Translations under genes and position numbers: made by a program
The notes under the pieces: generated by a model
Databases searched by the model: none
What the model was told of the DNA's origin: nothing
What the model saw: the letters and a program-made list of their open reading frames with translations, nothing else
In this document: piece after piece, positions 12,049 to 40,639 of the stretch
Layout: every line of letters begins with the position of its first letter
Numbering within the stretch: position 1 is the first letter of the stretch
Source: Marsupella aquatica
Lineage: Eukaryota; Plantae; Marchantiophyta
Direction: 5' to 3'
NCBI GenBank assembly: GCA_973895155.1
Contig: OZ316894.1
Coordinates: forward strand, 3,930,944-3,994,943
DNA: 64,000 bases

Positions 12049-12050
12049 AT

Positions 12051-16800: not shown

Positions 16801-17945
16801 GGTTGCTTAAGTCCTTGTATGGATTGAAGCAAGCTCCTCGATAGTGGAACAAGCGGTTTGATGATTTCATACTTGCACAAGGATTCACTAGGATGGTGTA
16901 TGACCTTTGTGTGTATACAAAATCAGTCAAGAATGGTGTGTTTGGTTTGCTCATTCTGGTGCTCTAGGTGGATGACATGTTGATTGCGGCTAAGGATCAA
17001 ACTGAGGTTGACAAACTCAAAGCAAAATTGAGTTCTGAATTCTGAATGAAGGATCTTGGGAAAGCCAAGAGGATCTTAGGTATGGAGATTACGAGGAACT
17101 TTGAAACTGGACAATTGTGGCTGAATCAAGGCAAGTATGCTGAAAAGGTACTTGCAAGATTCAATATGGAAAATTGTAAGCCAGTAAGTATTCCTTTGGC
17201 TCCACATTTCAAGTTATCATCGGCTTTCTGCCCCATGGATCCAGTGGAGAGAGGCTTGATGACTAACCGGTTCCTTATGAGAAGGCAGTGGGCAGTCTAA
17301 TGTATTTGATGACATGTACCAGGCCTGATCTAGCCCTAGCAATGAGCAAAGTGAGTAGATTCATGTCAAATCCAGGGAAGGTACATTGGGAGGTTGTGAA
17401 ATGGATTCTCAGGTATCTTAAGGGCACAATAGACTATGGTCTGTTGTTTGATAGTAGATCAAACAAAACCAAATCTTTGGTTGGCTATGTAGATTCTGAC
17501 TACGGAGGCTGTCTGGAAACAAGGAGGTCAACGATTGGGTATGTGTTTACTCTTGGAAGAGGATGCATAAGTTGGAGATCTACTTTGCAGAAGTGTGTAT
17601 CTCAGTCTACTACAGAAGTAGAATATGTTGCAGCAGCAGAAGCAGCAAAGGAAGCAATTTGGTTGGATAAGCTGGTCACTGAGATGGGATTGGAGCATGG
17701 AAAAATGACTCTTCATTGTGACAGCCAAAGTGCGCTTCACCTAGCTATTAACCAGGTTATGGATAGCAGGGTGAAACACATTGACATCAGGTACCATTTT
17801 ATTAGGCAAGCAGTGTCTGATAAAATGTTTGAGCTTTCAAGATTGATGGAAAGCTCAACCCGGCTGATGCTTTTACCAAAGTGATTCCTTTGGAAAGTTA
17901 CTCAAGACACCGTGCTACTTTGCAAGTTTTGCATTTGCAGCACAA
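13819..17945 (+). pseudogene. copia gag-pol polyprotein with multiple stops and frameshifts
   Basis: Gag MASKFGGVKFEVEKYDG with a damaged knuckle CWKCSKPGHMKRDY. Protease WILDCACTYHIC. GAG-pre-integrase WHCRLGHMS. Integrase VHSDVWGP / LRSDNGGEY / [30 protein letters not shown] and L*VDDML. RNase H GYVDSDY, STTEVEY and NPADAFTK. The final codon is split by the CACTA insertion. Confidence 0.95.
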
Positions 17946-17959
17946 CACTAGAAGAAAAC

Positions 17960-18335
17960 AGGGCCCTTTATGACCAATCACCCAATGACAGAGATGAATA
18001 AATGACCAAAAGTTTTAATGACACAAAAAGAATGACGGGGGAATGACTGTCCACAATGACCAATAGACTGAAATGACAAAATGTTAATTTTTTCGTCATT
18101 TTGTATAATGTCTATAATGACTGATGCGACCAAAATGACCCAATTTCCCTAAATGGTCAATTTAGACACATGTCTTAAATGACACAATTAATAACAACAA
18201 TGATAAATCAGTGTTTAGCAACATTATAGTCACTCTGGACAATGACTGAAATGACCAAAAATCTATTTGCATCATTTTGGACAACGGTGATAAATGACAA
18301 AAAATGTATTATCGTCATTTTAACCAACGGTGTTA
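17960..18335. repeat. Left subterminal repeats of the outer CACTA (AATGAC/GTCATT in both orientations)
   Basis: Dense aatgac and gtcatt motifs directly inside the TIR, mirrored at 45437-46145. Confidence 0.85.
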
Positions 18336-18850
18336 AATGACAAAATTTAGGGTCAATCTGAAAATGAGAATATATCAGTGTTTACAACAACATATTGTCA
18401 TTATGGACTTCTGCCATAAATGACTAACTCTAGGGTCAATCTTGAAATTAGGACATATTAGTGTTTACAAGAACATACCGTCATTATGGACTTCTCTCAT
18501 AAATGACTAACTCTAGGGTCAATCTTGAAATTAGGACATATCAGTGTTTACAAGAATATACCGTCATTATGGACTTCTCTCATAAATGACTAACTCTAGG
18601 GTCAATCTTGAAATTAGGACATATCAGTGTTTACAAGAATATACCGTCATTATGGACTTCTCTCATAAATGACTAACTCCACAGTCAATCTTGAAATTAG
18701 GATATATCGGTGTTTTCAACAACATACTGTCCTTATGGACTTGTCGCATAAATGACTAAATATAGGGTCAATCTAAAAATCAGGATATATCAATGTTTAC
18801 AATAACATACAGTCATTATGGACTTATTACATAAATGACTACTTATAGAG
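18335..18850. repeat. 83-bp tandem repeat, about 6 copies
   Basis: aaatgac unit starts at 18335, 18418, 18501, 18584, 18667, 18750 and 18833, an exact period of 83. Confidence 0.93.
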
Positions 18851-18929
18851 TCATTAAAGAACCCAAGAGATATGAAGATTAAAATACTCAATAGTCATTC
18901 CAGACACCTATCATAATTGTAGAGTCATA

Positions 18930-21900
18930 CACCTTTGGAGTGATTTTCCAGAAGTGTCATCATATATAGATGCGCGCATACTATCGTATCCATGGGGCAA
19001 ATGAAACCTTTTTGTCTCTCCAAGAAGTAGGGCAATACCAATGGAAGGTTGTCATGCTTTGTTGTAATTGTGTCATGTTTGTGCCGGTGTTTAGACGGGG
19101 AATATTTTAATTTGCAAATAAATGCATGCATACCATCACATCCAAAGGCAAATAAAAGTTGTTTTTTGGTTCTCCAAGAGGTAGTGCTGCCCCAATGGAA
19201 TGGGCAGGGGAGTCATGCTTTTAGGGTATGGTGTGGGTGCAGATTTAGGGAAGAGGAATATTCTAACCTTGCAAGGAATCTAAAGCTGGCTCTCTTTGGA
19301 GGTACTAGGGCCTTTATTGGGTCATATGTGAGCAATGGCCCGTCATAAATGCCAATGACTAAAAGTAGGGTCATTAAAATTGTCATATGGAGAGTCATAT
19401 CAGTCTAATGACTGGATTTGTGGTCATTTGAGGGGTCCCTTATGTAGTCATTAAGGAAAAGCACAAATGACCATTTTGGGGCTAGGGGCTTGAGGTAGGC
19501 CCTAGAGTGCCATGGGCCCCACATAGAGGTGAGAACCCCTCCACTGCGTGCGGGACACTATACTGTCCAACCACTAGTTGCGACATAAACACTTTGGACA
19601 CAAGTTTTTGTGTTTCCTTAAGGCATGATGCACCTTTGGGGAAATCACTCCCAAGTCGTATGACTTTGGAGTGATTTGCCAAAAGTGTTGCCATGCATGC
19701 ACACCATCACATACAAAGGCAAATAAAAGTTGTTTTTGGGTTCTCCAAGAGGTGGTGCTGCACCAATGGAATGGGCAGGGGAGTCATGCTTCTCAGTATG
19801 GTGTGGGTGCGGGTTTAGGGAAGAGGAATATTCCAATCTTGCAAGGAATCTAAAGCTGGCTTTAGTTGGAGGTACTAGGGCCTTTATTGGGTCATATGTG
19901 AGCAATGGCCCGTCATAAATATCAATGACTAAAAGCAGGGTCATTAAAACTGTCATATGGAAAGTCATATCAGTCTAATGACTGGATTTGTGGTCATTTG
20001 AGGGGTCCCTTATGCAGTCATTAAGGAAAAGCACAAATGACCAGTTTGGGGCTAGGGGCTGGAGGTGGGCCCTAGAGTGCCATGTGGCCCCACATAGAGG
20101 TGAGAACCCCTCCACTGCGTGCGGGACACTATACTCATCATTGTCCAACCACTAGTTGCGACATAAACACTTTGGACACATGTTTTTGTGTTTCCTTAAG
20201 GCATGATGCACCTTTGGGGAAATCACTCCCAAGTCGTATGACTTTGGAGTGATTTGCCAAAAGTGTTGCCATGCATGCACACCATCACATCCAAAGGCAA
20301 ATAAAAGTTGTTTTTTGGTTCTCCAAGAGGTGGTGCTGCACCAATGGAATGGGCAGGGGAGTCGTGCTTCCCTGTATGGTGTGGGTGCGGGTTTAGGGAA
20401 GAGGAATATTCCAACCTTGCAAGGAATCTAAAGCGGGCTCTCTTTGGAGGTACCAGGGCCTTTATTGGGTCATATGTGAGCAATGGACCGTCATAAATAT
20501 CAATGACTAAAAGCAGGGTCATTAAAACTGTCATTTGGAGAGTCATATCAGTCTAATGACTGGATTTGTGGTCATTTGAGGGGTCCCTTATGCAGTCATT
20601 AAGGAAAAGCACAAATGACCAGTTTGGGGCTAGGGGCTGGAGGTGGGCCCTAGAGTGCCATGTGACCCCACATAGAGGTGAGAACCCCTCCACTGCGTGC
20701 GGGACACTATACTCATCATTGTCCAACCACTAGTTGCGACATAAACACCTTGGACACATGTTTTTGCGTTTACTTAAGGCATGATGCACCTTTGGGGAAA
20801 TCACTCCCAAGTCGTATGACTTTGGAGTGATTTGCCAAAAGTGTCACCATGGATGCATACCACTGTTCCAAACGCAAATGAAGCCCTTTTTTGTCTCTCC
20901 AAGAGGTAGCGCAACACCAATGGAATGGGTGTGGCAGTGGTGCTTCCCTCTATGATGTGTCTGATGTTTAAAGGTATACGATTATTCCATTTTTGCAAGG
21001 AATGTAGAGCGGGCTCTCTCTGGCGGTGCTAGGACCTTCTTTGGGTCATTTTTTAACAAAGTCATGTCATAAGTGTCAATGACCACAAGTAGGGTCATTG
21101 AATTGGTCATATGGGATGTCATATAATTCAAATGACTGGACTTGTTGTCATTTGAGGGGTCTCTAGTGCAGTCATTGAAGACAAGCATGAATGACCAATT
21201 TGGAGCTAAGGGCTGGAGGTGGGCCCTAGAGTGCCATGTGGCACCACATAGAGCTCGCAACCCCTCCACTAGGTGTCAAATACTATAATTACTATTCTCC
21301 AACCACTAGTTGCACCATTAGCAGTTTGGAGCCATGTTTTTGTGTTTACTTAAGGGATGATATAATCTTGGGGAAATCACTCCCAAGTCGTACGACTTTG
21401 GAGTGATTTGCCAAAAGTGTCACCATTGATGCATACCATCCTATCTAAAGGAAATGAAGCCATTTTTTTTTGTCTCTGCAAGAAGTAGTGCAAGGCTGTT
21501 GTCCTTCCATGTAATTGTGTCATGTTTGTGCCGTTGTTTGGATGGGGAATATTCTATTTTGCAAATGAATAGTCTGTGATGGGGCACTCAAGAAGGTAGT
21601 GTAATCTTCATTGAGTCATTTCTGAAAAAATTGGTGTCATAAATACCAATGACTACAAGTAGGGTTATTAAATCTGTCATATGGGCTGTCACATAAGTCA
21701 AATGACTAGATTTGTGGTCATTTGAGGGGTCCCTTGTGCAATCATTAAGCAGAAGCACAAATGACCAGTTTGGGGCTAGGGGCTGGAGGTGGGCCCTAGA
21801 GTGCCATGGGGCCCCACATAGAGGTGAGAACCCCCTCCACTAGGTGCGGGACACTATACTCATCATCGTCGAACCACTAGTTGTGTCATGAACACTTTGG

Positions 21901-22920
21901 ACACATGTTTTTGCATTTACTTAAGGCATGATGCACCTTGGGGAAATCACTCCCAAGTCATACAACTTTGGAGTGATTTGCCAAAAGTGTCACCATGGAT
22001 GCATACCACCGTATCCAAGCGCAAATGGAGCCATTTTTTGTCTCTCCAAGAAGTAGCGCAACACCAATGGAAGGTTGTCATCTTGTGATGTAATTGTGTC
22101 ATGTTTGTGCCGGTGTTTGGATGGGGAATACTCCATTTTGCATATGAATAGTGTCGGGGCATTGTGAGTAGGTGTTGTAATCTTCATTGGGTCATTTTGG
22201 AGGAATAGTGTGTCATTAATGCCAAAGACTACAGTAAGGGTCATTTTGGCAGTCCTTTTGGAAGTCATTTGTGCCAAATGACTCCATATGGGGTCATTAT
22301 AGAGGTCCCTCATGGTGTCATTACGGACCATCAGAAATGACCCTTTTGGGTCTAGGAGCTTAAGGTGGCCCTAGTGTGCCATGGGGCTCTACATGAAGGT
22401 GGCAACCTCTCCACAAGGTGCGGGGTACTATACCCACCGTACTATTCTCCAACCACTAGTTGCACCATGAGCACTTTGGAGCCATGTTTTTGCAATTACT
22501 TAAGGGATGATGCAACCTTGGGGAAATCACTCCCAAGTCATACAACTTTGGAGTGATTTGCCAAAAGTGTCACCATGCATGCATACCATCCCAAGGCATG
22601 CATACAAAAATTGTTTTTGTCTCTCCAAGAGGTATATAGTGCAATACTAGTGGAAGACTATGTCCTTCTATATAACTATGTCATGTTTGTGCCGATATTT
22701 GGATTTTGGATATATTCTATTAAATTCCAAAGGAATTGTAAAGGGGCACTCCGAGAGGTAGTATACTCTTCATTGGGTCATTTTCACATAATGTGTGTCA
22801 TTAATGTCAATGACTACAATAAGGGTCATTTTGGTAGTCAGTTAGAGGTCATTTGGAGCAATTGACTGCATATGTGGTCATTAGAGAGGTCCCTCATGGT
22901 GTGTCATTAATGGAAACACC
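18930..22920. repeat. About 578-bp tandem repeat, 6-7 copies, each with a conserved hairpin
   Basis: gaaatcactcccaagtc occurs at 19641, 20219, 20797, 21373, 21943 and 22523, giving periods of 578, 578, 576, 570 and 580. Confidence 0.93.
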
Positions 22921-24249
22921 TCAAATTAGGGTAATCTTGGTTGTCATACTAGAGGTCAGAAGTACCAAATGACTGGAAATGTGGTCTTTACAAAGGCTAT
23001 TGGGGGGTTCTCTTTGGAGGTACAAGGGAGTTCATTGGGTCATTTGTGAATTAAATGGTGCTTCAATCTGAGGACTAAACGTGGGGTCACTCACGCTGTC
23101 ATATTCGAAGCCATTAATGTTGGCATATTGGAGGTCATATAGTCATGGGAAGGCTCACTTATTAATGCTTTGGTGTAATGCTCTCAAAAACTCTTAGACA
23201 ACATAGCCTCATATGTAGTGGTCATGTAGCATGTAAGGGACCCTATAATTGTGCTTGAGTCATGAATGAGGGTTTCTCTCAATTGAGTCAGGAGTGGAGA
23301 GCTATTAAATGCTAATATTTGGATGAGTATCACTATCATATGGTGAGACAATAAGGTAGTCCAAAATGGTGTTCATGCATGCGGGTTATGGGTTTATATC
23401 GCGGGCATATATCGGACCTTTTATATCGCTAGCATCATTTTTTATATATAACATTGGTCCTTAACATTCTTGTTGGCACCTACACAAACAGCCATGACCT
23501 TATGGGGGGGGTCGTGACATTATGAGTTATTAACCTTGCCTTCCCTATTTAGGGCCTTATGGGGGCGTCCGGACCTTGTTATTAACCTCTATAGTCGGTA
23601 TTTCCCTAGGGCCTTATGGGGGGGGGGTTTACATTGTTATTAACCTAGTCTCAACTTCCCTAGGGCCTTATGGGGGGTCCAGACATGTGAGAGATATTGT
23701 CAGAATATAACCCTAATTAATGACCCACAATATCCACCATCCCCATCCAACAGAATACCTTACCTTTATGGGGTTTAGGGGTCCAGCATTAGGTTTTTCC
23801 CGCTAAGTGTTCTTGCGTACCAACAGGAGCCCTTTTTCCTGAAAAAACATCGAGAGGGCAACGCTCGATGTGCTCATTTCTTGGCATGCCTTTGTGTGCA
23901 CATTGCAAGGGCTTAGGGTTGCGCAGCGTTGTGCTCCATTCCACCAAGCTTCGACACCCTTCGAAGCGTTGGGCGAGGCATTGTTCGGGCAAGCATTGGG
24001 TGAGGCATTGTTTGAGTGAACCGTTGGACGTGGCATTGTTTTAGTGACCATTTGCAAGGTTTAGAGGAGGAGCTCCGACCCGAAGCCATTCAGGCTACAA
24101 TTGTTTTTGAGCTTGTTGCGCGCGGTCGGTGGAGCACCTCGGTAGGACTTGGGAGCTTCTTTGGAGGACCCTGCGCTTTGGAGGACATTCGGGCTTTGGA
24201 GTGCCCGATTGCAGGGTCAAGGCAATAGCTTCTTTACATTTGTCCTTGT

Positions 24250-24525
24250 TGCGGGTGAGGAGCGGAGGATGAGCTGCAATCGGCGATAAGCTGCGGGTGA
24301 GGAGCGGAGGATGAGCTGCAATCGGCGATAAGCTGCGGGTGAGGAGCGGAGGACGACCTACAATCGGCGATAAGCTGCGGGCGAGGAGCGGAGGACGACC
24401 TACAATCGGCGATAAGCTGCGGGTGAGGAGCGGAGGACGAGCTGCAAATCAGCGACAAGTTGCAATCAGCAGCAAGCTACAATCGGCAAGAAGCTGTGGG
24501 TGAGGAGTTGCAATCGGCGAGAACC
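24250..24525. repeat. 42-bp GC-rich tandem repeat, about 5-6 copies
   Basis: gcgggtgaggagcggaggatgagctgcaatcggcgataagct repeats; the minus-strand ORF shows a 14-aa periodicity. Confidence 0.9.
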
Positions 24526-24852
24526 TACAGGAGGTTCCATCAAGGAGCTGCGAGAACTTATATCTGTGGGAGCGAGTTTGGGCTGAGGTGCGAGAAGGTC
24601 AGTTGTGCAATTTTGCGCTTCTTCCCCTTCTGGCCATTTGTTCATTCTGCATTTTTGCTTTGCTTTTGCCAATGTGCTACCAATGTGCTGTCAGTCCATG
24701 AATCCAATGTTGCCTTCTTGTTCTGTTGCTTAGTGTCTGCTAGTATGCTTATGGCAATGACAGAGAAGCTCCGATTGCTAAGAGACTATTTGCTCTCTCT
24801 TTCTCGCTCTCTCTCTGTCCCTCTCTCTCTAAGTGCCTGAGTTTTGCACCAG

Positions 24853-24986
24853 TTTTTGAATGTCTACAATGTTGAGTTCCCTTTGCAGAGAAATGTGAAT
24901 GCAGTTTTCGAATGTCTACAATGTTGAGTTCCCTTTGCAGAGAAATGTGAATGCAGTTTTCGAATGTCTAGAATGTTGAGTTCCCT
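24853..24986. repeat. 52-bp tandem repeat, about 2.5 copies, following a CT-rich tract
   Basis: tttt(c/t)gaatgtctacaatgttgagttccctttgcagagaaatgtgaatgcag starts at 24853, 24905 and (partial) 24957. Confidence 0.85.
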
Positions 24987-26860
24987 GACGTGATGCGATG
25001 GAGCATCCTGGACGCGCACTGATTGAAGCAGTTGTGCGTGTCGTCAGCATTGTCATGGATTGGAGAAGGAAATCCCATAGAACTAGCCATTGCACTTTCT
25101 TGCACAATGCCTGCATTTCCTTCCCTGTACCATGCTAGCTCCACTGCGACCTTCCACTGCTATCTATGTTGATTCCTTCCACTGCTACAAAATTCTGCTT
25201 TGCAATGGCATCCCAATGCTCATATGTCCCAGTAAAATTCGGGTAGACATAAGTATTAGGCGCGGACTCTTCTCTCTCTGCCTGCCCAAGATCAGGGTTT
25301 ACTGGTTCTAATTGCTAATTCAGTCCCCATTTAGAAAGACCTAAGAAATTTAACTATCTTTGAGCTTTATTGTTTGTTTTGGCAAAATCTTCCCTTGCGG
25401 CCAGCAGCTGAGGCCCAGCGTCCACAATGTCCGATACATTTTTCAAGACATAAGTAAGCTGGCTGGGAAATGCCTTTCTCCTCAATCTCAAGAGATGATT
25501 TTTCTGGAGTCTGCTCACGTATTGCTCTTGCTTGTCCAGAACCTGAACGGCTATTTACCACAACTGAATCAAGTGCCCGAGTTCTGACCAAGTTGTCCTT
25601 TGTCTGTCTGCTGTTGATTTCTGATTGCTACTTGTTGGATTTGTCTGCTATGTTCAGTTCAGTTTGTTGTCTTGTTGTCGTCTGACAATCTTTGTGGTGC
25701 AAGGTGAGCTTGATCTCTTATTATTACAATGTAGTCCTTAGTTTTCCATTGTATGATGTTTTCCTTAGTCTGTCTATGTTCCTCAATGAATTGGTTTCCT
25801 TACTCTTCTTTTGACATCCCTCTGTATCATAGCCCTTTTCTTTTCTCTTTTTTTTACTGAAGAGAAGTGCAGGCATGTATGGTGAATCCTCACTTGATTC
25901 CAGCAGCGACTCTATAGAATTTTGTCGCCAAAAAGTTTCAGAGTTTCGTGTGTGGTTTGCCAACTGCTGTGCCACCTCAGAGAATTCCTTAGTGGCTTTT
26001 GTACAAGCCTTGCTCTTCAACTATGGTAATTTACAGCTAACTGTCTGATGTTCACACAACATCCATACACAACAATGAATACAACTCCATGAATACAGCC
26101 ACATGATTTCCTTTGGTCTGCAAACTGGACGAAACTAAACTAAAATCAGCTTGGTCAATTTTAAATTCTTCGTAAGGGTCTCTGACAGCAGCCCGGTATA
26201 GTCATTTGTGCACGAAGATAGAGTACGGTGCAGCTTTTGAAAAAGTGGGTGGACCAGCAGCTTGTTGAGAGTAAAGCAACTTATGGTTCTGTAACAGATG
26301 TGTGCAGCAGCTTAAGATGTAGAAGGCACACAATAAAACTTGATTTTTACAGATTTAAAAAAGGGCAGGGTGAGTGAGCACTGCATGTTGAACTCACAGG
26401 TCCGAATCTTGATTTGATTTCGCTGCTAAAATTCGTATCTCTTGCCTGAGTCCCAGTTTGCTGGAGTTTTGTTGCTCTCTGTGCTTTGTTGTGCACATTG
26501 TTGTGTTTGCTCTGTCCATTTTAAAACTTGAGAGCCAAATGAATGCTTTGCTGAAACTCAATTGCTATTTGTTCTGTGTTGCCCTTACAGATTTTAAAAA
26601 GGCAAGGTGAGTGAGCACTGCTGTACAGCAAGCAAAGGCATACAGGTTGCAATATTTGTGATTGCTTCCAATCATCTAGGCCAAGGTTATTTGCGCTGCT
26701 CAGTCCTAAATGCTTTGCCATCTATAAAGCATTGGTTTATGCTGCACCCTTGTGGTTACATGTCATATTTTATGCTGCACCCTCATTCTTTTGTGTCATA
26801 CTGCACCCTGTTATTCCTTCTTGTTTCACAATCTGATGTAGGGTCTGAGTGTGCAGGACC

Positions 26861-27520
26861 ATGGCTCGCAATAAGCAGAAGGCCATGAATCGTTGCAGAG
26901 GTGAATCCTCTCAAGCACCTCAATTGTCCTTATATTCAGACATTGAGATTAACCAGAATAGTCCACATGTATGTGCAATTTGTGATGAGGGAGGGGATCT
27001 CATTGTTTGTGATGGGCCTTGCCACCGACATTTCCATAAGAATGTTTCCTGTCCTTTGGGTCAGCAATGGCTATGCCCAACTATATCCCTCGCTGATGGC
27101 CATGTTGGAGAATGGCTTTGTGTTGATTGCAAGAATGAGGAACATTCTTGCTTTAAGTGCCATGTGTCTGGAAAAATTGGTGAAGAGGTAAGAAAATGTC
27201 CAGACTCTCTCTGTGCCCGGTTTTACTGTCGGCAGTGTTTGGTTCCTGGCACAGCATCATGTGGACTCCATATTTGTCTTACTTGTGGACAGGGGCCCAA
27301 TGATGGGGCTAATGGCTTTTTGGTTCAGTGCATGAGGTGTCCTAAGGCATGGCACAAAGACTGCCTGCTGTTTATCCAGCAGAGGGGATTTGCCCATGAT
27401 CGAACAATTTGGGATCACTCAGCGCATGGGCAGCCCAAGAAGGGGATGTTTTACTGTCCTGACCATGACATTGACCCTACACTAGGCACTCCTGCTAGGA
27501 GCCACATATCTTGGATTTGA
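26861..27520 (+). CDS. Stand-alone EDM2/NSD-type composite PHD-finger protein (219 aa) carried by the outer CACTA
   Basis: Uninterrupted ORF; the ATG is in an accATGG context just after a tgcag acceptor. CAICDEGGDLIVCDGPCHRHFH...CVDC.EEHSCFKC...CGLHICLTC...CMRCPKAWHKDCL...YCPDHDIDPTLGTPARSHI matches the EDM2 PHD module as I recall it, including the YCxxHxIDxxLxTPxRxH tail. Confidence 0.88.
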   Translation: MARNKQKAMNRCRGESSQAPQLSLYSDIEINQNSPHVCAICDEGGDLIVCDGPCHRHFHKNVSCPLGQQWLCPTISLADGHVGEWLCVDCKNEEHSCFKCHVSGKIGEEVRKCPDSLCARFYCRQCLVPGTASCGLHICLTCGQGPNDGANGFLVQCMRCPKAWHKDCLLFIQQRGFAHDRTIWDHSAHGQPKKGMFYCPDHDIDPTLGTPARSHISWI

Positions 27521-28117
27521 TTGAGGCTGGATGGAACACAAACTTGAAATAGAGCTTTTTGATGGTTTCACGTGGACTTAAACAATTTTCAGAGTGCTAA
27601 AACATGTGGACTATTTATATGCAGTTTGATGAACTCCTCATGTATACACACTCTACGACAGTGCATTGCGGATTGAGGCAATTAATTTTGAGAAATCAAC
27701 TTTATTATCTTTTCCAGGGTAGGATTCCGATTTTCAAGCATGTACTTTGAGTGTGACTTTCCTCCATATTGATGTCTAAACTTCACTTGTAAATTTGTCA
27801 CTGGTGTCACAAACGTTACTTATTCTAGACCTGTCTGCTCACATTCCTAATAGGCAAACAAATACTGGAAATGATGAAGCCACAGAGATTTACGTTCATA
27901 GTATCATTCTGATGACACTGTATGTGATGCTCTATTTGTATGCAAGGAGAAGGTGCCCTACTACAGTGGATTTGAGAAACTGGGCTCTGTGGGTTTGAGC
28001 AATTGGACTGTGGTTGGCATCGGTTGTACAACTGTGACGGTAGGCCCAATTTTGTATGCATGTCACTCTGATTAAGTTTGAAAATCATAGTTTGAATACA
28101 ATTTCAATCAAGCTAGC

Positions 28118-30911
28118 ATGGCACAATTGCCACAGAATACGTTAGGTGTGGGTAGAACTCCAAAGTTGCCGCTCTTCCATCCAGCTAGAGTACAACATCG
28201 TGATGATGCTTTGTGGGTTCGAGAACAGAAGGCCTGCCACAAGAGTGGGGACCATAAGATGTACTGCCCTTGTGTGAACTGCAAAGGGAATTATAGGACT
28301 AATCGGAATACTGCTAGACTGCACCTTATTAAACATGGTCGGTACCCTGCATGTCAAGTGTGGGTGGGAGAGGGACAGGACTCTTCTGATGAAGAGTGGG
28401 GTGCTGACTACATGCCACAACATGGCCCTGAGGCATTGAGGGTAGCAAACCTTCAGCAGGCAACCTGTGCACAACAGCCAATTGTAGATGTTGAAGAACA
28501 TTTATTTGTAGATGTTCCAGAGTATCCAACTGTGGATGTTCAAGAACATCCAACTATAGATGTCGAAGAACATATCAGGGCTCTACTGGAAGAAACGTTG
28601 CTGAGAACCAGTGAAGAATCCCCTGAGCATGAGCTAGATGATCAGGACCGTTTTGACTTGGATTTTGTACTTGGGGATGATGAGAGTGAAGGAGGTGCCC
28701 ATCCTGTAAACCCCCTTGAAACCTCCAAAACTCCTGTGGAGACTGATCCTGCACAGTTATCTTTAGATGCAGCAATGCAACCTTTGTTCCCAGGCAGCAA
28801 AATAGATGTTGTGTCATTCATGTTGCTTCTGCTGAACATCTGTCATGGCCATGGATTCTCAAACAAAGGAGTGAATGCATTGTTGTCTTTGATGGGGGAG
28901 CATGGTATGCCTACAGAGCATAATCTGCCCAAGAACTTATATGCTGCAAAGCAGCTATTGAGAAAGCTTGGCTTGGATTATGAGAGAATCCCTGTCTGTG
29001 AGAAAGGTTGTATGCTCTTTAGGGGTGAGAATGCCAAGTTAGAAAACTGTTTAGTGTGTCAGCAGCCCAAGATGAAGAGAGTGGGGAATTCATTACAGGC
29101 AAGGAAGGTAGTGCGGTATTTCCCTATAATTCCCAGGTTGAAGAGATTGTATGCCACTGCTGGTACATCTAAACTCATGACTTGGCATCATGAGAATAGA
29201 AGCACAGACAACATGGTTCGGCACGCAGCAGATTCAAAGGCTTGGAAGCATGTGGATACAAATATTGATCGGGAATTTGCAGCTGAACCAAGGAATGTGC
29301 GATTTGGGTTGGCACTTGATGGGGTGAATCCCTTTGGGAATAATTCCACAGCTTGGTCTACCTGGCCAATACTGTTGTTGAATTACAATTTACCTCCTTG
29401 GCTTACCACCAAGAAGTTCTTTGTCATGCTAGCTATGCTGATTCCAGGACCTGATTCAGTAACAGAGGAACAGCTAGACATAATATTGGGCCCATTCTAT
29501 GAGGAGTTGGAGCTGTTGTGGAAGAAAGGAGTGCCCTGCTTTGACAAATTGCCATGCCCAGGATTGTCTCAACACTTCAACCTTAGGGCTGTGCTATTGT
29601 GGACAATCAATGATTACCCTGCATATGGTTTAATATCTGGACAACAACACTCTGGATACAAAGGATGTGTCATCTGTGGACCAGAATGTGTGGCACGTGG
29701 TTCTAAGCACTTGCAGAAATTAGAGTACAGTGGCCACCGTCGATGGTTAGCAGCAAGGCATCTTTTTCGTAGACCAGATAGTGCACAATACTTTGATGGT
29801 GCAATTGAGAGTCGACCTGCACCGTGTAGAATGACAAGCTCTGATAGAAAGAAGTGGTCTGAAATGATGGCCATGCATCATTATATATTAGAGAATGAAG
29901 AGACAGTGGCTCCATGGTACAGGTACATAAACCCTAGAAACTCTCCTATCCTTAGGCATATGGATCATAATTATGTTGCCCCATTGTGTTTGTATATTCA
30001 TGGTGGATCGTGCACTAATGTCTTCAGTGTTGTTGTTGCCATGCAGGATATATGATGCTACCAATGAGACTGTTACCAAACAAAGAGTGGATTTCCGGAA
30101 GGAGTGGATGAGGAAGCCTGCCAATCGAAGAAAACCAGTGGAATTTCCCGTAGACTGCCAAGAATTGCCACCTTTCAGGGAATGGTTTCAAACATTAGTC
30201 AATACCCATAATTTTGAGAAAGAGTCTGAGCGGTCATTACTATCTGCATACTCCACACCACCTAGTTTGAAGGCACGACTGTATAGGGCATGTAGAGCCT
30301 ATGGGCACCATTGGAGGACTATTCCATCCTTGGGGTGTTTGAGTGATTGTGATTCTGGTGCTTTCAGCACTTTTGATTCTGGGATGGCTTCTACATTCAC
30401 TGAGAAGCGAGTGGACAGGTCTGGTGCAACCATAGAAGAATCTGTACAGTATGTAGGGGCCTTGACAGATATCTTGGTACTGAATTATGGCAGCTTGAGG
30501 AAAGAGGTGATTCTTTTCAAAGGGAAATGGGCAGATCCATCATGGACTCCTAAATCCTCTGCCAGTATGAGGTATACCAAGTCTGGTCTTTGGCAGGTGA
30601 ATTTCCATAGAGAACTGGGTGTGTCCAAGAAAATGGATTACGTTTTCCCAAAGCAAGTGGAGCAGGTTTTCTTCCACCCCAATGAGAAGGGGATAGCATG
30701 GAGAACAATCCTCCACAAAGAATCCAGGTCCACAAGGGTGTTAGGTGATTACACAGACATTGATTTCCATGCTACAATGGAAAACAATGCCAAATTACAC
30801 ATCGAATTGGCTAAGGCCTGTAGGTCCAGAGAAAATCCAGGACCAAGTACTGGTCCCAAACGAGGCAGAGATGCAGAGGGATCTGCAAGAAAGGGCAGGC
30901 CTAATCAGTGA
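28118..30911 (+). pseudogene. CACTA TnpD/Tnp2-type transposase of the outer element, internally deleted; exons 28118-29922 and 30047-30911
   Basis: N-terminal CPCVNC...HLIKHG, then VRYFPIIPRLK, VRFGLALDGVNPF and WTINDYPAYG. C-terminal LFKGKW...YVFPKQVEQVFF (DUF4216-like). A GT-AG intron at 29923-30046 joins the frames. The MHIE/KxHD/WMYxxER block is absent. Confidence 0.9.
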
Positions 30912-31002
30912 ATAGGTTTTAGCTAGGTGTGTGAAGTCCATAGATGGACTACATGTATGGACTATTTATGAAATCAGACTAATGGTTTACCCATTTGTGC
31001 AG

Positions 31003-34000
31003 TTGGTGAATGCAGCCTGTGAAAGGAAGATTGCAAGGGTTGTCACATTCTGTGAATCCTTATGAGGAGGCCCGAAATCGGAACATAGAGCATAATGTCA
31101 GAATTATGCGTGATCTAGGACTGGGGCCAGACTGCAAGCTGATGTGTGTGTTGATATGTCTATTGCAAATTTGATTTAGTAGATGGAGTTGTCAGGTTCA
31201 TGTTCTGTTTTCATATTCCAGATTGGTCTCATACTAGTATGGATCCTGTACATAAGTACTAGTGTTACGGTGTTGTAGATTCATTTTGCATGTATCTTTG
31301 ATCTGCATTGGTGTATGTTGATGATTGCTTTGTTCCTTAGAGGCCCAACCACACATGTACAACGAGAGAGAGGAAAGCCTGCTTTGGTGAAAGGTACTTC
31401 AACTGAAACATTGCCAAACAGGAGGAGCTCTAGACTATCAGAAGTTACCAAGGTGAACATGGCAGAGTTTGGTGATGATGGCTATGGTTCTCCTTCTGAG
31501 TATGACACTGAGGATTCTGACATTGGAGGATCAGAACCAGAGAGTGCACAACAGGTAATGCTTGAACTTCATCATCCTAATAGGAAGGGATCCTTGTCCC
31601 TTTTTCAAATTATATGTTGATATGCTTACGTTGTCCATGATGTAGGTACAGAAACAAAATCGTGGTCCTAAGAAGACTGGGCCTGGTGGAGGTGGGCTAG
31701 TGAGATGTTGGAAAGACCCAGACACTGGACTCTTATATGAAAGTGAGTGGATTGTACTGTTCTACTTTTCAGGTGTGTTTGGAAGTTGATATTCTACTTG
31801 GAAATGAAATTAATTGAAGTGCTTTGGTGTTGTGTGTTTGTTTAGTGGTTCCATCAGCATCTCAAGGCAGATCAGGTCAATCTGATGTACTACATTCCAG
31901 AGGATCTTCAGGTAATACACAATCTGCTCGTCATGCATATGCAAGTACATTTGCTCAACTTTTCAATCATGTACATATTTTTTGATTGAATGCATGTGTG
32001 TGCATTGCAGGAGGGGCCTCTGAGATGCGCAGGGAACGAAGGCATGCTAAGAAGCAGTTTGATAATGCTGCCAAACAACGAAGGGATTGCGGAGAGGTGC
32101 CCAAACACATTAAAGTGAGTATTGTACTTGTTTTGAATGTAGATTTAGACAAATCTGATCCTCTCTGTTGTTGTGTGTATAAAACCTGGACTCTGCATAA
32201 ATTCCAGAGTTATGATCTGACATTTTCTGTGAAATGCAGATTTATGACAATGATATTGATGATTCTGATGGCAACAAACAATACTGGCTGGAGGAACTTC
32301 GTGGCAACGTACTCAGAGTCTTTGATGTATCAAAGCCAAAATGGACTGATCATCCACAAGTTCATACAACCACTATGTGGAATAACATGGCAGCTGAGTG
32401 GGAGTATGTGGGTGGGGAATTTATTAACACCAAATTCCAGAGTCATTGTCGTGGCATATTGAAGAGAGAGCGCCATAAAATGCATGTTTATTGGAAGAAA
32501 GTTTGCAATGAGGATCCAACCAAACCTGGGCCATCTGGTGTTGATCCAAAGAAATGGGCAGCTTTGGTATCTCATTTTACCAGTCCAGCATTGATATCTT
32601 TGAGTAAACAGATGACTGATAAAAGAGCACGAGTGCAAGATACCTCTCACTTTGGAAAGGGAGGGCATGCTGCAGAAGCAAAGAGAATGGTAAATTGTCT
32701 ATCATTTTCACTATCAATTCTGTCTTGTTTGTGAATCTTGATGAAAACAAACTCTGTGATTTCTCATTCATTGTGTGTTTGAACAGAAGCAGAAGAGAGG
32801 ATCAAGCCCAGGTATATCTGACCTGAAAGAAAACCATGGTAGTCAGGGTTCATTGCCAAAGGTGACAATGAGCCCATCATTGGCAAGTGCAGAAGGTCAG
32901 ACTGGTAGTTTTGTGGGAGCAAAGGTGAGCCCATCATTGGCAAGTGGGGAGGGTAAAAGTGCTAGCTTACTGGGGCAAGGAAACAGACATGGATCAGCTG
33001 TGAGTATTGTCATACCAATTTGATTTGTACATCATTCTCCATTTGACAGAGCTAGTGTTGTGTCATTTGTAAGTTTGACAGTGAGACTGTTGTGTTGGTT
33101 TGTGGTTCATTTACAGACCCCACATTCAAAAGAAGAGATCACTGCCATTGGGGCTGTGAAATTGGATGTCGCTGAGTTGAAAGGCACTGTGAGGGAGTTG
33201 ACAAACATGATGACTACGTGGATGGCACATCACCCCAGTAATGCACAAGTTCCAACAGTTGTGCCTAGTCACAGTAAGTTGACTACAACTACCAAACAAG
33301 GTAGTAGAAAGCGATCTCTTACTTTTTCAGGCGATAATGAAGGTAAAATTCTCTATCATGTATACACTGTCCATTCAATGTAATTATTGTGATGTGTATA
33401 TGTCATTGCATGTTTATAATGTTCTTGCATGTTTTTAGTGTGATTATATGTTGCTGGTGTATACATGTTTGTTTATGCATTTCTTTTGTGTGTGTTTTAT
33501 GACAGCATCTTTAGGGGAGCCTCCTGTGTCGCAGGGAAGACCAACTGACACAGCTAACAGTACTCTAAAGCAAACTGAATTGGAAGTGAACCTTTTGCCA
33601 TCTAAATTGCCCAAAGAAGCCATTTCAGATGCCTTTCAGTTGCCAGAGGATAAGTCGACTCAGTTGACACCAGATGTAACCCCAGAATCATCTGAGTTGC
33701 CAAAAGAAACTCCCATTCCAAGTGAACAAGATGACACTCCATCAACTAGAAAGGGAAAGAAGAAAAGGAAGAAAGGATCCTCAGCAAATGCATCACCTGC
33801 ACAGAAGAAACCAATGCAGTCTTCTAAACCCGTTGCAAAGGTAAATGTGTGTTTGATTTGAGTGTTCTTCTATCTTTCAATTTCTGTTTATTGCATTTTT
33901 AACAAAATGTGTTGTTCACAGTTTGCAAGAGGAGATTTGGTGAAGATGAAGAGCGTTGTGGACAATTCCATGATAGTGGTAGAAGGTGAGGTGACAGGGC

Positions 34001-34182
34001 TGCCAGGAGAAGATAAGTTTCATTGTGCAGATTTTGAAAGCCCTTTCTTGTGAGTGCGTGTGATTGAAGTGTTTGTAGATGTGGCATTGCCATTTGCCAA
34101 TTCAGGGGAGAACCAGTCTAAATTATCTGATGTGAAAGGGATGAATGCCCTATGGAACTCTAGATTGCTTAAGAAGCAATAG
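31003..34182 (+). pseudogene. Multi-exon CACTA TnpA/ORF2-like accessory gene of the outer element; exon boundaries approximate
   Basis: NPYEEARNRNIEHNVRIMRDLGL near 31053. KPGPSGVDPKKWAALVSHFTS...TSHFGKGG resembles Ptta/En/Spm transposase_24. Coiled-coil and basic NLS-like segments follow. The C-terminal VVEGEV...VRVIEVFVDVALP...ALW domain has an in-frame TGA at 34051. Confidence 0.72.
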
Positions 34183-34399
34183 AAATAGCACTCTATCAAG
34201 AAACAATAGACATGATAGAATGACAACTCTGTTTTTCTATAAACATGCAGAGTGATTGGTATGTCAGGTTGTAACAATTGACAATCTAATATTATTGATG
34301 TCAATGTAATTTTGTTTCATAAATTTGCATTGAGTTCAATATTTACCGTGAGACTTATGAAGGTATCTTGTATGAATATCACACTACTACATATTTGCC

Positions 34400-34940
34400 A
34401 ATTTTGCGAAGGCGTTTTACAAGAGGAAGAAAGCTTTGCAAGATTAATCTCATCGCTAAACTTGCGATACGATATGCATTGCACTTAGCGAATCTACACA
34501 CATCGCAACACATAATTGCGAAACTTAGACCATCGCAACATTTTACCACACTTTAGGTATCGCAAAACATTTCCGAAGCAATTACCATTGAACAAGTTAG
34601 CGATCTTTACCGCTTCGCAAATTCATTGAGATGCGCCGGAAAACTAAATGGTTGCGAATATTTAAGCATCTCAAAATATTTTGCGAGTCTTATTGTCTCG
34701 CAAATGAGCGATGTTTGTGGAATATATGGCTAACTTGCGATAGTAATAGGCTCGCAAATCCTGTGCCTATCTAGGGTCTCATTTTGTGAATGTTTTGGTT
34801 TCGCAACTTTGAGATGGTGGTATCTTCGGAAGTTTGCGATGAGGGGATGATGGCAATTAGGGAGCAGTTAAGTATCGCAAATGTAGCGATGAGTTTGCGG
34901 GTGTAGGGGTTTCGCAAGATGTTTCGCAAAATATTATGAG
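34400..34940. repeat. Left subterminal TCGCA/TGCGA array of the inner CACTA
   Basis: Many tcgca, ttgcga and agcga motifs in both orientations, mirrored at 44790-45260. Confidence 0.85.
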
Positions 34941-35735
34941 CGCTTCAAAGAGGTGGAAAAGGAATGGGATTGGGGAGGGAGGGTAAAGGAGGGTGGATAC
35001 ATGTAATTTTTAGGGAGGGACAATGAAAAGGAGGAGGAAGGGAATGGGGCTAGGAGGGACAAGGAACGGAGGGATCCAAGAGGGAGGATACAGGTTTAGG
35101 GGGCACAAGGAAATGAGGGAGGAGGAAGGGTATGTGGATATAGTTTTAGGGAGGGTTTGGATTTAGGGAGTGAAAATAAAAGGAGGGAGTTTAGGGTTTA
35201 GAGAGGGACAAGGAAAGGAGGGAGGGTATTGGTTTAGAGAGGGACAAGGAAATGAGGGAGGTTTAAGGGTATAGGTTTAGGAGGGAGGAGAGAAGCTAGG
35301 TTGTATAGGTAAGAGTGGGGGACAGGGGTGGAAAGTAAGGAAAGTATAGGGTTGAAATAGAAAGCCAGGGGTTGGGACAAGGAGAGGAAGGAGGAAGGAG
35401 GGTTTAATAAGAGGGACAGACAATGAAAGAAAGGAGGAGGGAGGTGGGTACAAGTAATAAGGAGAATAGCTAGGGGGGGATTAGGAAAGCATGGAGGATA
35501 GAGGACTACAAGCAACATGAGTTTTCTTTGCATAAAGTCTACCAAAAGGTGTGGTGAGTGTGGGGTAGGGATGGGAGATATAGAAAACAACATTTGAAAA
35601 TGATATACTTACAAAACATAAGTTTATTGATAATTGAGAAGCACATATTTCTCCATTCTACCGAGAAGAGAAATCTTCATATCATCAAATCGAACTATAT
35701 ATCCGTGTAGCTATATATCCACAAACACAGACCCC

Positions 35736-38700
35736 TCAAACTTGGTCCTCATCATCTTCAGGTTGGGACACAACCAGAATATCAGGCTTTTCCCCAACGA
35801 TTGAACGAGACCGTGGCACATATGTGATGACAAGTGACCATTCCTCTGGGTTTGGGGGGTATGGAATATAGAAACATTGTTCCACATGACTTGGAAAAGT
35901 GAACGGCTCTGATGTTTGCCAATGAGATGGCTGGAAACTAGTGGCAGACGTCTTCAGTCGTGTAAATCCACACTCATCTTGAACCACAGTAGGATTGTTA
36001 CCTGCAAGGTTCACTTTGAACCACTTGCACTTGAAGACATACTCTTCAAACTTTGATTGTGCATCATAAGATATCACTAGAATCTCTTCTACCTTTCCAT
36101 AATGTGGCACAACATCTCGAATTATATTTGTGTCATGGCGACTGCTGCGGGAATCTTGAGAGAATTGTCCTTGAACTCCACAATCAAAGGTACGACCCCT
36201 CTTCTCATCAAGGGAAGAAATCCTAAAATCCATCAAACTATAAGGATATGTTACACAAAAATAGACACAAACATATTCCAATTAATTGAACACACCAAGA
36301 ATCTGCCTCTTCAATATACGTGCTTGTATTACAAATGAATTAAATTAAACCAAGTGATTCAAATCAAAGGTTACTAAGGTAGATGGAGATCACCTGAAAT
36401 GTCTTCCTTGTGTCCACATTGCTGTCCTTGTTGTAACCACTCTCAAGGGACCATGAACAATGGTACGAACATCATCTGTGATAGCCGGAAAATGTAATAC
36501 ACTCTCTCCCCTGACCACCATGTCATCCACCTCAACTAACTTCTCCTTCATATAGTCAAGGTACTTTGGAAAAATCCTTGGTCTTGTGCTGTTACTTTTG
36601 GCATCCTCATAGAAATCCCTCCATTCTTCCATGATAGTGTTGTTACTCAACATGAATGTGGTCAGTTGTTTCACCTCCACTGGTGTCAACATGCGAGTTT
36701 TCCTAGCACTTGTTAAACGATCCTCTTCATCTTCCCTCTCCTCTACCCAAGTACGGGGAGAGGTACAATCAATTGTGGCCAATATGTTACTACAATAGAA
36801 CATACTCTCAGCTGCTAAGTATCCTGTAGCCATGCTTCCCTCAACCCGTGCACGGTTACGTACATAACCTTTTAACACTGCCATGTATCGTTCTAGCCAA
36901 TACATCCACCGACAATGCACAGGACCTGCAATGGCCACCTCATGAACAAGATGAACAAGTAAATGCACTTGACAGTCAAAAAAGGAAGCAGGAAGGGCCT
37001 TCTCCAACTTGCATACCACCTCTGCTGCCAAAACCTCCATCCCAGGGATCTCATCAGTATATATCTCCTTAGAGCATACCCATCTCAATAGTTTTCCCAA
37101 TGACCAAAGGGCATCTTGCACTTCTTCACTTGCCAAACCTATTATGGCCACAGGCAATATGTGCTGCAATAACCTATGGTAGTCATGTGTCTTGAGATAC
37201 CTTGGCCACTTATGATTGTCCTCCATCCCAAAGGCCTTTCGGAGATTGGCACCATAACCAGTAGGAAACCGCATGTCTCCTATGCGATTCTGAAACTCCC
37301 TTCTCTGGCCAATAGGAAGCACCCATGGAGCTGAAGGTCGATGCTCGATCCCTGTGATAGGATCACTTATGACCCACATGTCTGGATGCATCTCAAGATC
37401 CTCACAAGCCTCCCTGAAGTTAGTGTCTTTCTCTCCATAGAAAGCCTTTATCAAAGCCTTTCCCATATTTCCCTCAATGTGCATGGGGTCTAATAGATGG
37501 CGGATCTTCAACTCACCCCAATAGGGCAAAGTGGTTAATATACTCCACCTTGTCAAGCCACTACTGTCAAATTGCATGGGATCCTCTGGGTCTACCACTC
37601 TTGCAGCCATGTCTTTCCAGTGTGTAAAAGTTGTTGGCTCAGGTACATCATGCTCGTCACCAAAGGGCATATCAATAGAGGAAAATAGTAGTGGGTCACG
37701 CCTCATCTGATGTCCCATTGGAAGAAACTTTGTATGCCCAAGATAAACAATCTTGCGAAGATGTGATGAATACTTGGCTACATCACCAAGGCTTGGGCCA
37801 CAAGTGGAGCAAGCCTTGTAGCCTTGGGTTTGCAACCCACTCACAAAGCCAAATCCTGGTCATATAAACACACATTATGTTAGGATTAGCACATGGAAAT
37901 GAGGGGATACCATGCATTAGAATATGATGCATTTAAACAACAAAGTTCTTACCTGGGTAGTCATGCATGGTCCACATACAAACCCCTTTGAGTTTGAAAA
38001 CCCGTGGGGTACCCCCTGTAGTCTTTCGACCATCATATGCCCATACTCCTTCCCATAATTTCTGGAGTTCCTGAACCAGTAATGTCAAATAGGTGTCCAT
38101 GTTCTTCACCTTCTTTGGCCCTGGGATAATCAAAGATAGCAACAAAAAACCCTTTTTCATGGACAACCATGGTGGAAGGTTGTAATTCATGAGAACCACA
38201 GGCCAGACCGATGTAGGTCTCCCCTTCCCTCCAAGTGAATGAGGGCTAACTCCATCTGATGCCAACCCCAGTCGCACATGCCGAGGGTCACGCTCAAAAT
38301 CTGGCCATGTTGATTCCACATGTTTATGAGCAGGAGAGTCAACTGGTAATCGCATGACACCAGGCTCCGAACGATGTTTCTTGTGCCATACCATCAACTC
38401 GGCCAAGTCAGAACATCTATACATGTGCAACAAGCGAGGAATTATGGGGAACCAACGACTGCTTTCCTTGGTACCTTCTGGGTTAGCATGTTTGGCTCAT
38501 ACCGTGGCTCATGACACACTGTGCATTCTGTGATATGGGCTGTATCCCCATGAAATAACATGCAATCATTCACACAGGCATGAATAATATGGTAATCCAT
38601 ACCAATGGATGAGAGAACCTTCTTTGCATCCTTCCAGGTCCCTGGCAACACATTCTCCGAGGGTAACATCAAGTCATGACAATATTCAAATATGTCTGAT

Positions 38701-40506
38701 AACATAGAATTGCTTATCTTGTGTTTGGCTTGAATGTTCAAGAGCCCCAATATGGCAGAAAGACGGCTCAACCGAGCACCCTCAAAAATAGGTGTTCGAG
38801 CATGTTCCTCTGCCTCTTTCCATTGTTGTTGTCCCTCTGGAGTATGTTGTGGCCGTGGGTCATTTGAAGGGCCAACCTCATGACCAATGTGAGGCACATC
38901 ATCCTCAACATCGGCACCAAACCAATCAACCATGAAGTCATCCATGGCTCTATCTTGATCATGCATGACCTGGTCATCAGTCCGAGGTGCGGCTTCCTCA
39001 TCAGCACCACCTACATCATTACTTGATGAGGAATCACCCTCTGATGGTTCTCCCTCTTCTGGCATACCCATCTCCCGATATGTTGCTCTCAACCTTCGTG
39101 GTAACATTTGTTGAGATGGTTGCGCATTCTATGCACATTACAACCAAAAAACCTCCTCATGTATATTTGACCAAGTACAACAAATTAAAATAGACTTAAC
39201 ACCATTCATTCAAGACATTAAGAATTAAAGTAAATGCATGGGCTAAAACCTTATTACTCCAAAATGAGCCCAAAGGCCATATATATAATAGTAAATGGGA
39301 AGTCCAAAATAGGTGCAAGAGGATAAAGGACATGATTTCCTAATCCCACTCATAGTGTGTGAATAACTCATCTCCTGCTCTAATGGTCCTAGTAGCAAGA
39401 ACTAAGCAATGGTCCTTATGATATGTCGTGCCATATGGTGCCGGCATTGGACCATCAGTAAAAACCCACTCACAATTGGCCCTACGCTTGGGCCGAGTCC
39501 CCACAGTACTATTTATGAAACCAGCAATATTCCCATTACGTATGGGATCACCATCTATCACCCGCTGCTCACTATACCTTCTAGTGCTACCATCAAAAGT
39601 ATCCATCTCTAGAGCATATGTTTTCCACTCAGGATGTTGTGCAAGGATCATGTTCCAATGTCTTCTCTTGTAGATGGGTCCACCGTATGGGAACAAAGTA
39701 GGACCCTCTCTACCACGAACACTTGACCCACCCTCCTCATCCATGATGATATCCTCACAAGCAAATACTCCATATCCATGTCTCTCTCCAAGTGTGGAAG
39801 TTTTCACAATCCAACGTCTACCCCAAACCACAATCTCCTCATCAAAATCTGTAAAATAAGGCAAGCCAAGAGTGATAGGTTCCCAATCCTTGATGATAGA
39901 GGCACACTTGCTAGTGAATGAACAAACACCCCACCTACCCTGAACTAGTGTTCTGGATGGGTCATTGGGTGCTCGTGGCCTCCTGTTGGATTGGGGCCTA
40001 GACCGGGGTCTTCGTGTCTCAGTGGGCACATGAGGGTGTTCCCCTTCTGTCCCATGACTGGTACTAATTCCCAAACCCAAGGCTTGTGAAAGTGCATTGC
40101 CTATAGCATCTAAAACTCCTTGTGATGGGACATAGGGTGGTGGTGTCACCAATCTACGCATACTGGATCCCTATTCCATGCAAACACCCACAAACAACCA
40201 AATGTGTAAACCATATGTGTAAACATTGATTCACCTCTAAAAATAACAGTAAAGAACGGCAATCAATTGAAACAAACTTACCATATGGGATGAAGAAGCC
40301 CCGGGAGTAAGACCTCTATGACGTCCATATCTCTCAATATGTTGAGCACACACATAAGATTTTTGAGAAATTTGGCCCACACATCTGGTGCAGTCATAAA
40401 GTCTTCGGGGTGGACCACGAGGACCAGTAATCTCGGGCTGAGGAGGAGGGGGTATATCATCATCGGAGGAGTACTCACTACTGGATAGTTCAGAGGACGA
40501 GGACAT
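35736..40506 (-). pseudogene. TnpD/Tnp2-type transposase of the inner CACTA; predicted exons 40506-40282, 39128-37953, 37855-36394 and 36222-35736; one frameshift near 38457
   Basis: Motifs VRLGLASDGVSP, WTMHDYPG, LDPMHIEGN, LKTHDYH, HLLVHLVHEV, WMYWLERYM, FKCKWF and EPFTFPSHVEQCFY. All three predicted introns are GT-AG and preserve frame. Restoring 1 nt gives VRWFPIIPRL. Confidence 0.9.
39340..40506 (-). CDS. SET-domain protein (putative lysine methyltransferase) of the inner CACTA; exons 40506-40282 and 40170-39340
   Basis: STLGERHGYGVFA (motif I), PYGG, IDG...GNIAGFINS...ANC (NHS-like) and LATRTIRAGDELFTHY (ELxxDY-like). No post-SET cysteines. The SET exon is uninterrupted, and a phase-0 GT-AG intron at 40281-40171 links it to the upstream exon. 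Confidence 0.85.
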
Positions 40507-40639
40507 ATCCACTGCCACATTACATTGCATGTAGGGCATGATTAGGAAAAATTAGGCCATATATAAAGCGATTTAAAAAAAAATGAACTCAAAAAACAAT
40601 TAGGTTGGTTTATACATGGGGTTTTATTACCCTTTTATA

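Follow-up and report, generated by a model that had tools for sequence, protein, structure and literature searches.

A small gene inside a CACTA/EnSpm transposon of the liverwort Marsupella aquatica represents a real, selected and apparently undescribed family of CACTA accessory genes. Its product, a 219-aa protein, is related to EDM2 without being one. What marks it out most is an N-terminal tail resembling the first ten residues of histone H3, carried in front of a composite PHD zinc-finger cassette. The gene lies within the element, is found in copies from other organisms as well, evolves under purifying selection and is a member of an old family of stand-alone genes. Our preferred reading, to which we give a probability of roughly 0.4, is that the protein may be a histone mimic that baits host readers and modifiers of the H3 tail, helping the element to escape silencing.

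The window (the whole stretch of DNA analysed, 64,000 nucleotides) holds the PHD open reading frame (ORF) and the transposons around it in the following arrangement.

26861–27520, plus strand: stand-alone PHD ORF, open from ATG to TGA, 219 aa
26864–26893, plus strand: H3(1–10)-like tail, residues 2–11 (ARNKQKAMNR), predicted to be disordered
26933–27517, plus strand: EDM2/NSD-type composite PHD cassette, residues 25–219
17946–46166, plus strand: outer CACTA/EnSpm element with CACTAG...CTAGTG termini and terminal inverted repeats (TIRs), some 17.3 kb long once the nested element is subtracted
17946–22926: left TIR and subterminal region of the outer CACTA, with 35 ATGAC/GTCAT motifs in 17946–19300 and tandem arrays
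23800–24700, plus strand: region that retains CpG (observed/expected 0.86, compared with 0.2 in coding sequence) and contains a 42-bp tandem array
28118–30911, plus strand: TnpD transposase with Transpos_assoc, Transposase_21 and DUF4216; predicted intron 29923–30046
31005–34183, plus strand: multi-exon TnpA-like gene, exon limits approximate
45283–46166: right subterminal region and right TIR of the outer CACTA, with 27 ATGAC/GTCAT motifs
11716–46712, plus strand: copia-type LTR retrotransposon, the recipient of the CACTA insertion, with duplication ATGCA

The outer CACTA is bounded by a 3-bp target duplication (CAA at 17943–17945 and 46167–46169). The LTRs of the surrounding copia element (11716–12050 and 46378–46712) are identical at 328 of 335 positions, and the CACTA insertion is therefore young. 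The left arm of the outer CACTA contains about six copies of a 570–578-bp unit (19122–22926) and at least six of an 83-bp unit (18227–18890). In the 5' region of the copia element, two telomere-like (TTTAGGG)n tracts face each other in inverted orientation at 12641–12788, and a GC-rich array with a 9-bp period lies at 12924–13103. Beside the transposon nest stand host exons of a RING-variant protein (1675–2439, minus strand), a C3HC4 RING protein (52764–53813, plus strand) and a NUBPL/ParA-type NTPase (55925–56431, minus strand).

The original prediction had described an intact, intronless ORF made almost entirely of a PHD module, about 600 bp upstream of the transposase and co-oriented with it. 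The position is borne out, with the PHD ORF upstream on the same strand and 597 bp between it and the start of TnpD at 28118. The frame is likewise intact over 219 codons, its intronless state being read from the DNA only; residues 2–11, in turn, are H3-like and not PHD. CpG observed/expected is 0.22 in both the PHD ORF and TnpD against 0.66–0.67 in the host genes. We rejected the idea that a host gene is overlapped here by a transposon, as the ORF lies inside the TIRs and is CpG-depleted like TnpD. The CpG-retaining stretch at 23800–24700 is likely to be the promoter and first exon of the outer CACTA; maize Spm has a GC-rich control region comparable to this island. Sites resembling AG splice acceptors precede the PHD ORF.

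Damage to TnpD and TnpA had been part of the original prediction too, and here the picture is mixed. TnpD retains a strong Pfam match to Transposase_21 (PF02992, 4e-66) and reads through 890 aa with no premature stop once its one predicted intron is removed; its DUF4218 region is gone from the window copy through an in-frame deletion near 29857, at which point (29855–29857) the contigs of sequencing runs X1 and X2 continue into other sequence. The last exon of the TnpA-like gene has a premature TGA at 34051, a position that shows T>C in all four runs. Both lesions look specific to this copy, and other copies seem free of them. For this reason the contrast between an intact PHD ORF and damaged neighbours is weak evidence, and we rejected an argument for selection built on it. 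The TnpA-like gene had no Pfam match, and its label rests solely on its position and on an Atlas lead to Transposase_24, present in 32% of one cluster.

Protein searches recovered at least 33 equally short relatives, 38–83% identical to the window protein and sharing its start region and end; no relative found in these searches bears a functional name. A quick, unrooted maximum-likelihood search placed 26 family sequences on one side of a branch with SH-aLRT support of 100 and 52 host sequences on the other. Identity to host proteins reached at best 33–36% over 123 sequences, which do not include the source organism's own EDM2, so the ORF is nowhere near-identical to any of these host exons; Selaginella EDM2 and Marchantia proteins of the EDM2-like type are among the closest host matches.

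The gene is also not confined to the window copy but travels regularly with the element. Of the 12 runs listed, five, spread over three organism labels, contained half or more of the words sampled, and in four of four runs (organisms A, B and C; three studies) contigs covered the ORF together with all 30 bins of 23500–34400, though these runs had been found using the PHD gene and organism A is possibly the source of the window. Among the contigs listed, none bridges the PHD ORF to the start of TnpD. Run X3 alone gave 420 contigs of graded identity over a 721-bp stretch with the PHD ORF, with no indel listed; summed contig depth does not measure copy number and was not treated as doing so, and nothing was drawn from the small-share runs X8 (two contigs) and X9 (none). 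A locus search in metagenome contigs returned one short locus, and one in viral and prokaryote contigs returned none. The single relative for which DNA was at hand, L001, is intronless as well, has a premature stop and little flank, and resembles the window over the ORF only, apart from two weak short pieces; linkage of the PHD gene to a CACTA is established for the window's subfamily only.

Sequence variation among the copies speaks of constraint. Runs X3 and X6, which share one organism label, listed 34 variants and no indel, 33 of the variants falling within the PHD ORF, and these comprised 19 synonymous changes and 14 replacements, none of which alters a conserved Cys/His ligand. Scored singly, with two pairs sharing a codon, the 19 synonymous variants compare with 8.7 expected (p 1.6e-4), corresponding to an omega of about 0.27 and not to neutral drift. 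The synonymous excess tells against short length alone, which the original prediction had allowed as an explanation of the intact frame.

These data bear directly on the reading that a host exon was captured passively, as in Pack-CACTA elements, and is intact merely because it is short and young. The youth of the window copy is in its favour, as are the truncations seen in several relatives, L001 among them. However, the variants are mostly synonymous, host identity is low and the family forms a separate deep lineage, so this is not a stray host exon and passive capture is unlikely; a start, an end and family-specific residues common to proteins only 38–83% identical also tell against it. We regard this reading as largely refuted and give it very little weight. 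Of the four outcomes that the original prediction had named as refuting it, three (presence in a single copy or neutral evolution among them) did not come about.

The cassette itself is of the EDM2/NSD type, as had been proposed from sequence: Pfam detected PHD_NSD (5e-8) and PHDvar_NSD (2e-7), with PHD-1st_NSD below the cut-off, and the closest PDB matches of the ORF were the PHD cassettes of NSD3 and NSD2 (2e-10). PHD families are all that was found in the 219 aa, with no ELP methyltransferase-like, PGR or acidic domains. An AlphaFold2 model (53 rows) had a mean pLDDT of 90.2 and a pTM of 0.83, with residues 1–20 uncertain, and a Foldseek search with it returned PZP and NSD PHD-C5HCH structures at low TM-scores. 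The prediction is thus of a zinc-finger cassette that folds well, preceded by a tail that is disordered and free. Every zinc-ligand position of the host module is kept, as are Asp51 and Trp85, and the family adds features of its own: a [FW][ST]xxExxQ helix, His36, Cys123 and His186.

Fingers 1 and 2 each differ from their host counterparts. An acidic residue within the six positions before Cys1 of finger 1 is found in none of 33 family sequences, against all 103 host fingers matched by the pattern, and the AIRE Asp aligns with the near-invariant His36 of the family. In BAZ2A/B, acidic patches of the PHD fingers are required for H3 binding (PMC5415848). Finger 2 has exchanged a ligand His for Cys in 26 of 27 family sequences and lost a loop, the span being nine residues in the family vs 14–45 in hosts.

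How far such a cassette may be compared with EDM2 is the crux of the main competing reading. In EDM2, atypical PHD fingers, two and a half in number, are accompanied by ELP methyltransferase-like, PGR and acidic domains (PMC7529245), and the protein is reported to bind H3K9me2 chromatin and to promote full-length transcripts (PMC7529245, PMC7472560). The window protein might be a trimmed reader. Its cassette would recognise tails of the H3K9me2 type and would either rival ASI1-AIPP1-EDM2 or draw it in, to the benefit of full-length element transcripts, and its basic tail would be no more than a nuclear localisation signal or a nucleic-acid-binding patch. The retained zinc-ligand positions, Asp51 and Trp85 are in keeping with this, and so is the presence of Selaginella EDM2 and Marchantia EDM2-like proteins among the best host matches. 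The reported role of EDM2 PHD fingers in binding H3K9me2 and suppressing proximal polyadenylation in intronic transposon sequence (PMC7529245, PMC7472560) would suit an element with a long multi-intron unit, and basic residues at the N-terminus can serve in localisation. On the other hand, all the remaining EDM2 domains are missing and the acid before Cys1 is lost in every family sequence, with His36 aligned to the AIRE Asp, while Ala at positions 1 and 7 and Arg rather than Lys at position 2 of the tail are specific to order in a way that goes beyond mere basicity. Given the H3-like tail and the missing acid before Cys1, EDM2-like reading of H3K9me2 cannot be assumed, and the transfer of the H3K9me2 and ASI1-AIPP1-EDM2 role made in the original prediction is not supported in that form for a protein of a separate lineage, stripped of the other domains and altered in finger 2. 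We consider a trimmed reader rather unlikely.

We return to the tail, on which the histone-mimic reading turns. The N-terminus of histone H3 is ARTKQTARKS (PMC5415848); the window protein starts MARNKQKAMNR and its closest relative, P0001, MARTKQKAYKQ. A published rule for mimics of the H3 N-terminus, iM-Z-R-X-K, is reported to hold for 48 of 20,996 human proteins (PMC8166343), and the window start, MARNK, satisfies it. Among 33 family sequences the rule holds at the called start in 11, compared with none of 123 host sequences; of the others, two have the motif behind an internal Met, 14 have it away from the tip and six lack it as called. Left out of this count were P0008, P0054 and P0068, whose N-termini could not be used; P0136, in which the first Cys is altered; the near-copies P0006 and P0154; and the late additions P0228–P0231. 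In one subclade an ARK[ST]-like half stands in place of the iM-Z-R-X-K start.

To quantify the resemblance we took the 45-residue stretch that precedes the first finger and scored its best match to the H3(1–10) 10-mer. The 33 sequences had a mean of 16.1 against 10.2 +/- 1.1 for permuted motifs, only one of 2000 of which scored as high, and the ten sequences below 55% identity had 14.6 against 9.3 +/- 1.2 (3 of 5000); the test was chosen post hoc and the sequences are related by descent. Taken singly, 17 of 33 family sequences passed, compared with 8 of 95 host sequences over the same region. Column by column, position 1 is A, S or T in 28 of 28 sequences, R2 is present in 28 of 29, K4 in 25 of 28 and A7 in 21 of 29, and positions 8–9 are mostly K or R; the adjoining linker is unconserved and varies freely. 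The family retains R2, K4, A7 and basic positions 8–9 in register with H3. Position 3 departs from it, being Pro in 12 of 27 sequences and Thr in three, with Asn in the window protein. A T3A change in H3 abolishes binding to the BAZ2 PHD fingers (PMC5415848), and the prevalence of Pro at this position thus speaks against close mimicry of the T3-dependent kind. Neither a PDB search with the tail alone as query nor a profile search with the PHD family gave a match, in the latter case to a histone.

The host side offers a possible source of the tail. Thirteen of the 123 host sequences start MAR, including Selaginella EDM2 and Marchantia proteins. A set of EDM2 and EDM2-like proteins from Selaginella, Marchantia and relatives (P0010–P0014, P0019, P0063 and P0077) begins MAR[TVA], and most other host sequences have an acidic start of the MASSDDE type. 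The MAR[TVA] start of host EDM2 could possibly be a partial H3 mimic itself, and the MAR start of EDM2-like proteins outside the seed plants may be where the H3-like tail came from.

A tail of this kind might also be directed at the protein that bears it. As a built-in switch, it would bind its own first finger in cis or that of a second copy in trans, be released when modified and so gate chromatin binding, and it might descend from the MAR[TV] start. Intramolecular histone mimicry is reported for the BAZ2B PHD finger (PMC5663869); the linker, at about 29–42 residues, is long enough, Asp51 is kept, and the MAR start is met in 13 of the 123 host sequences. The tail, however, was docked in neither AlphaFold2 model (pLDDT 51–62, with no strand), which is weak evidence. 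The disorder and accessibility of the tail are predictions of these models. Modelling P0001 as a complex of tail and cassette, with the alignment not used, gave a score of 0.02, which weighs on neither side. The motif is off the free N-terminus in 14 of 33 sequences and the acid before Cys1 is lost, and we judge a switch improbable.

Under the histone-mimic reading, an EDM2-like host gene would have been captured and all its other domains lost. The gene would be expressed as a splice form of the element transcript, and the protein would be anchored to chromatin, or to a partner, through its folded cassette. The free H3-like tail could then titrate or recruit host factors that act on H3 tails, and silencing of the element would be eased by a decoy or an adaptor.

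The outer CACTA is not the only element in the window with cargo of this sort. A second CACTA is nested in it, and its empty site is visible in the contigs of runs X1 and X2.

34382–45279, minus strand: second, nested CACTA with target duplication TCA, TCGCA/TGCGA subterminal motifs and a broken TnpD on the minus strand
39340–40170, minus strand: SET-domain ORF that stands alone, immediately upstream of TnpD in the nested CACTA

The subterminal TCGCA/TGCGA motifs number 17 in 34382–35000 and 20 in 44700–45279, and they resemble the core of the target reported for Arabidopsis TnpA-Spm1, CCVTCGCAAA (bioRxiv 10.64898/2026.08.24.746577). The motif also clusters in the interior of the nested element, near 42150–42300 and 43560–43730. 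A second gene of this element (42125–44544, plus strand) runs opposite to TnpD and SET and had no Pfam match. The SET ORF likely has an additional 5' exon near 40280–40520. It has 48 relatives, the named ones from Sphagnum and Calypogeia; some of them belong to clusters with over 100 members, the largest numbering 360, and in one Sphagnum gene model SET is joined to TnpD sequence. The SET gene is probably a widespread bryophyte CACTA cargo, and as it occupies the same slot relative to TnpD as the PHD gene, it suggests that CACTAs of this lineage use the slot for chromatin-directed cargo.

The nesting also invites the thought that the PHD protein is a targeting adaptor, guiding the transpososome to a chromatin state such as that of other repeats, with no part in anti-silencing. 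PHD cassettes are chromatin-binding modules, and the window copy has inserted into a copia element and has itself received a further CACTA. A single insertion, though, is uninformative on bias, and the H3-like tail would go unexplained; this reading is in our view a long shot.

The histone-mimic reading can be widened to the lineage, in a form that we hold tentatively and with slightly less confidence than for the window protein. CACTAs of non-seed plants, probably bryophytes, may carry an old family of histone mimics in which a copy of the H3 tail is mounted on an EDM2-derived PHD scaffold and decoys or redirects readers and writers of H3K4 and H3K9, with SET-bearing CACTAs pursuing a parallel strategy in the same genomes.

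Several known systems share parts of this design. With EDM2 and EDM2-like proteins the window protein has in common a homologous two-and-a-half-finger module with equal ligand spacing at 33–36% identity; unlike EDM2, it is transposon-borne, of its own lineage, furnished with an H3-like tail and altered fingers, and devoid of further domains. As an accessory gene within a DNA transposon it recalls VANC of VANDAL elements and TnpA of Spm/CACTA, being likewise element-encoded and kept by selection. VANC has been proposed to be a captured chromatin regulator, MAIN (PMC13547354), and VANC and TnpA are reported to act through DNA motifs that they bind, with hypomethylation as the result (bioRxiv 10.64898/2026.08.24.746577); the PHD protein differs in its PHD cassette and histone-like tail, and it is additional to a TnpA-like gene. 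SET, TET/JBP and PAG1-3 are reported as cargo of HarbingerS, MuDR, EnSpm and Plavaka elements (bioRxiv 10.1101/2025.02.11.637652, PMC12730594), and like the PHD gene they are chromatin-directed accessory genes kept by DNA transposons, the CACTA superfamily included; the cargo described there writes or erases marks and comes from red algae, oomycetes and fungi, whereas the PHD protein lacks a catalytic domain and is from a land plant. Known H3-tail mimics include influenza NS1 (ARSK) and G9a (ARKT), and the window protein fits the iM-Z-R-X-K rule for mimics of the H3 N-terminus (PMC8166343). The known cases are human or viral, none described as transposon-encoded or fused to a PHD cassette of its own; the PHD protein is a putative mimic by its sequence. 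The term 'PHD' is missing from the main texts of PMC13547354, PMC12730594, PMC13317346, bioRxiv 10.1101/2025.02.11.637652 and bioRxiv 10.64898/2026.08.24.746577, and a literature search whose scope excluded Repbase, subscription journals, figures and supplements showed no paper on a plant transposon that encodes a PHD protein of the stand-alone kind or a histone mimic.

The counter-defences known from transposons work by binding DNA (VANC, TnpA) or by modifying DNA or histones (TET, SET). If our reading is true, a non-catalytic PHD protein with a copy of a histone tail would be a further kind of counter-defence, and histone mimicry, described so far for viruses and host proteins, would have a transposon counterpart. 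The protein is small, predicted to be well folded and available in many natural variants, which makes the idea directly testable. The ligands of EDM2/NSD-type PHD cassettes are poorly defined, and the protein may also reveal what such cassettes are used for and how they are controlled, the MAR[TV] start of EDM2 in non-seed plants included.
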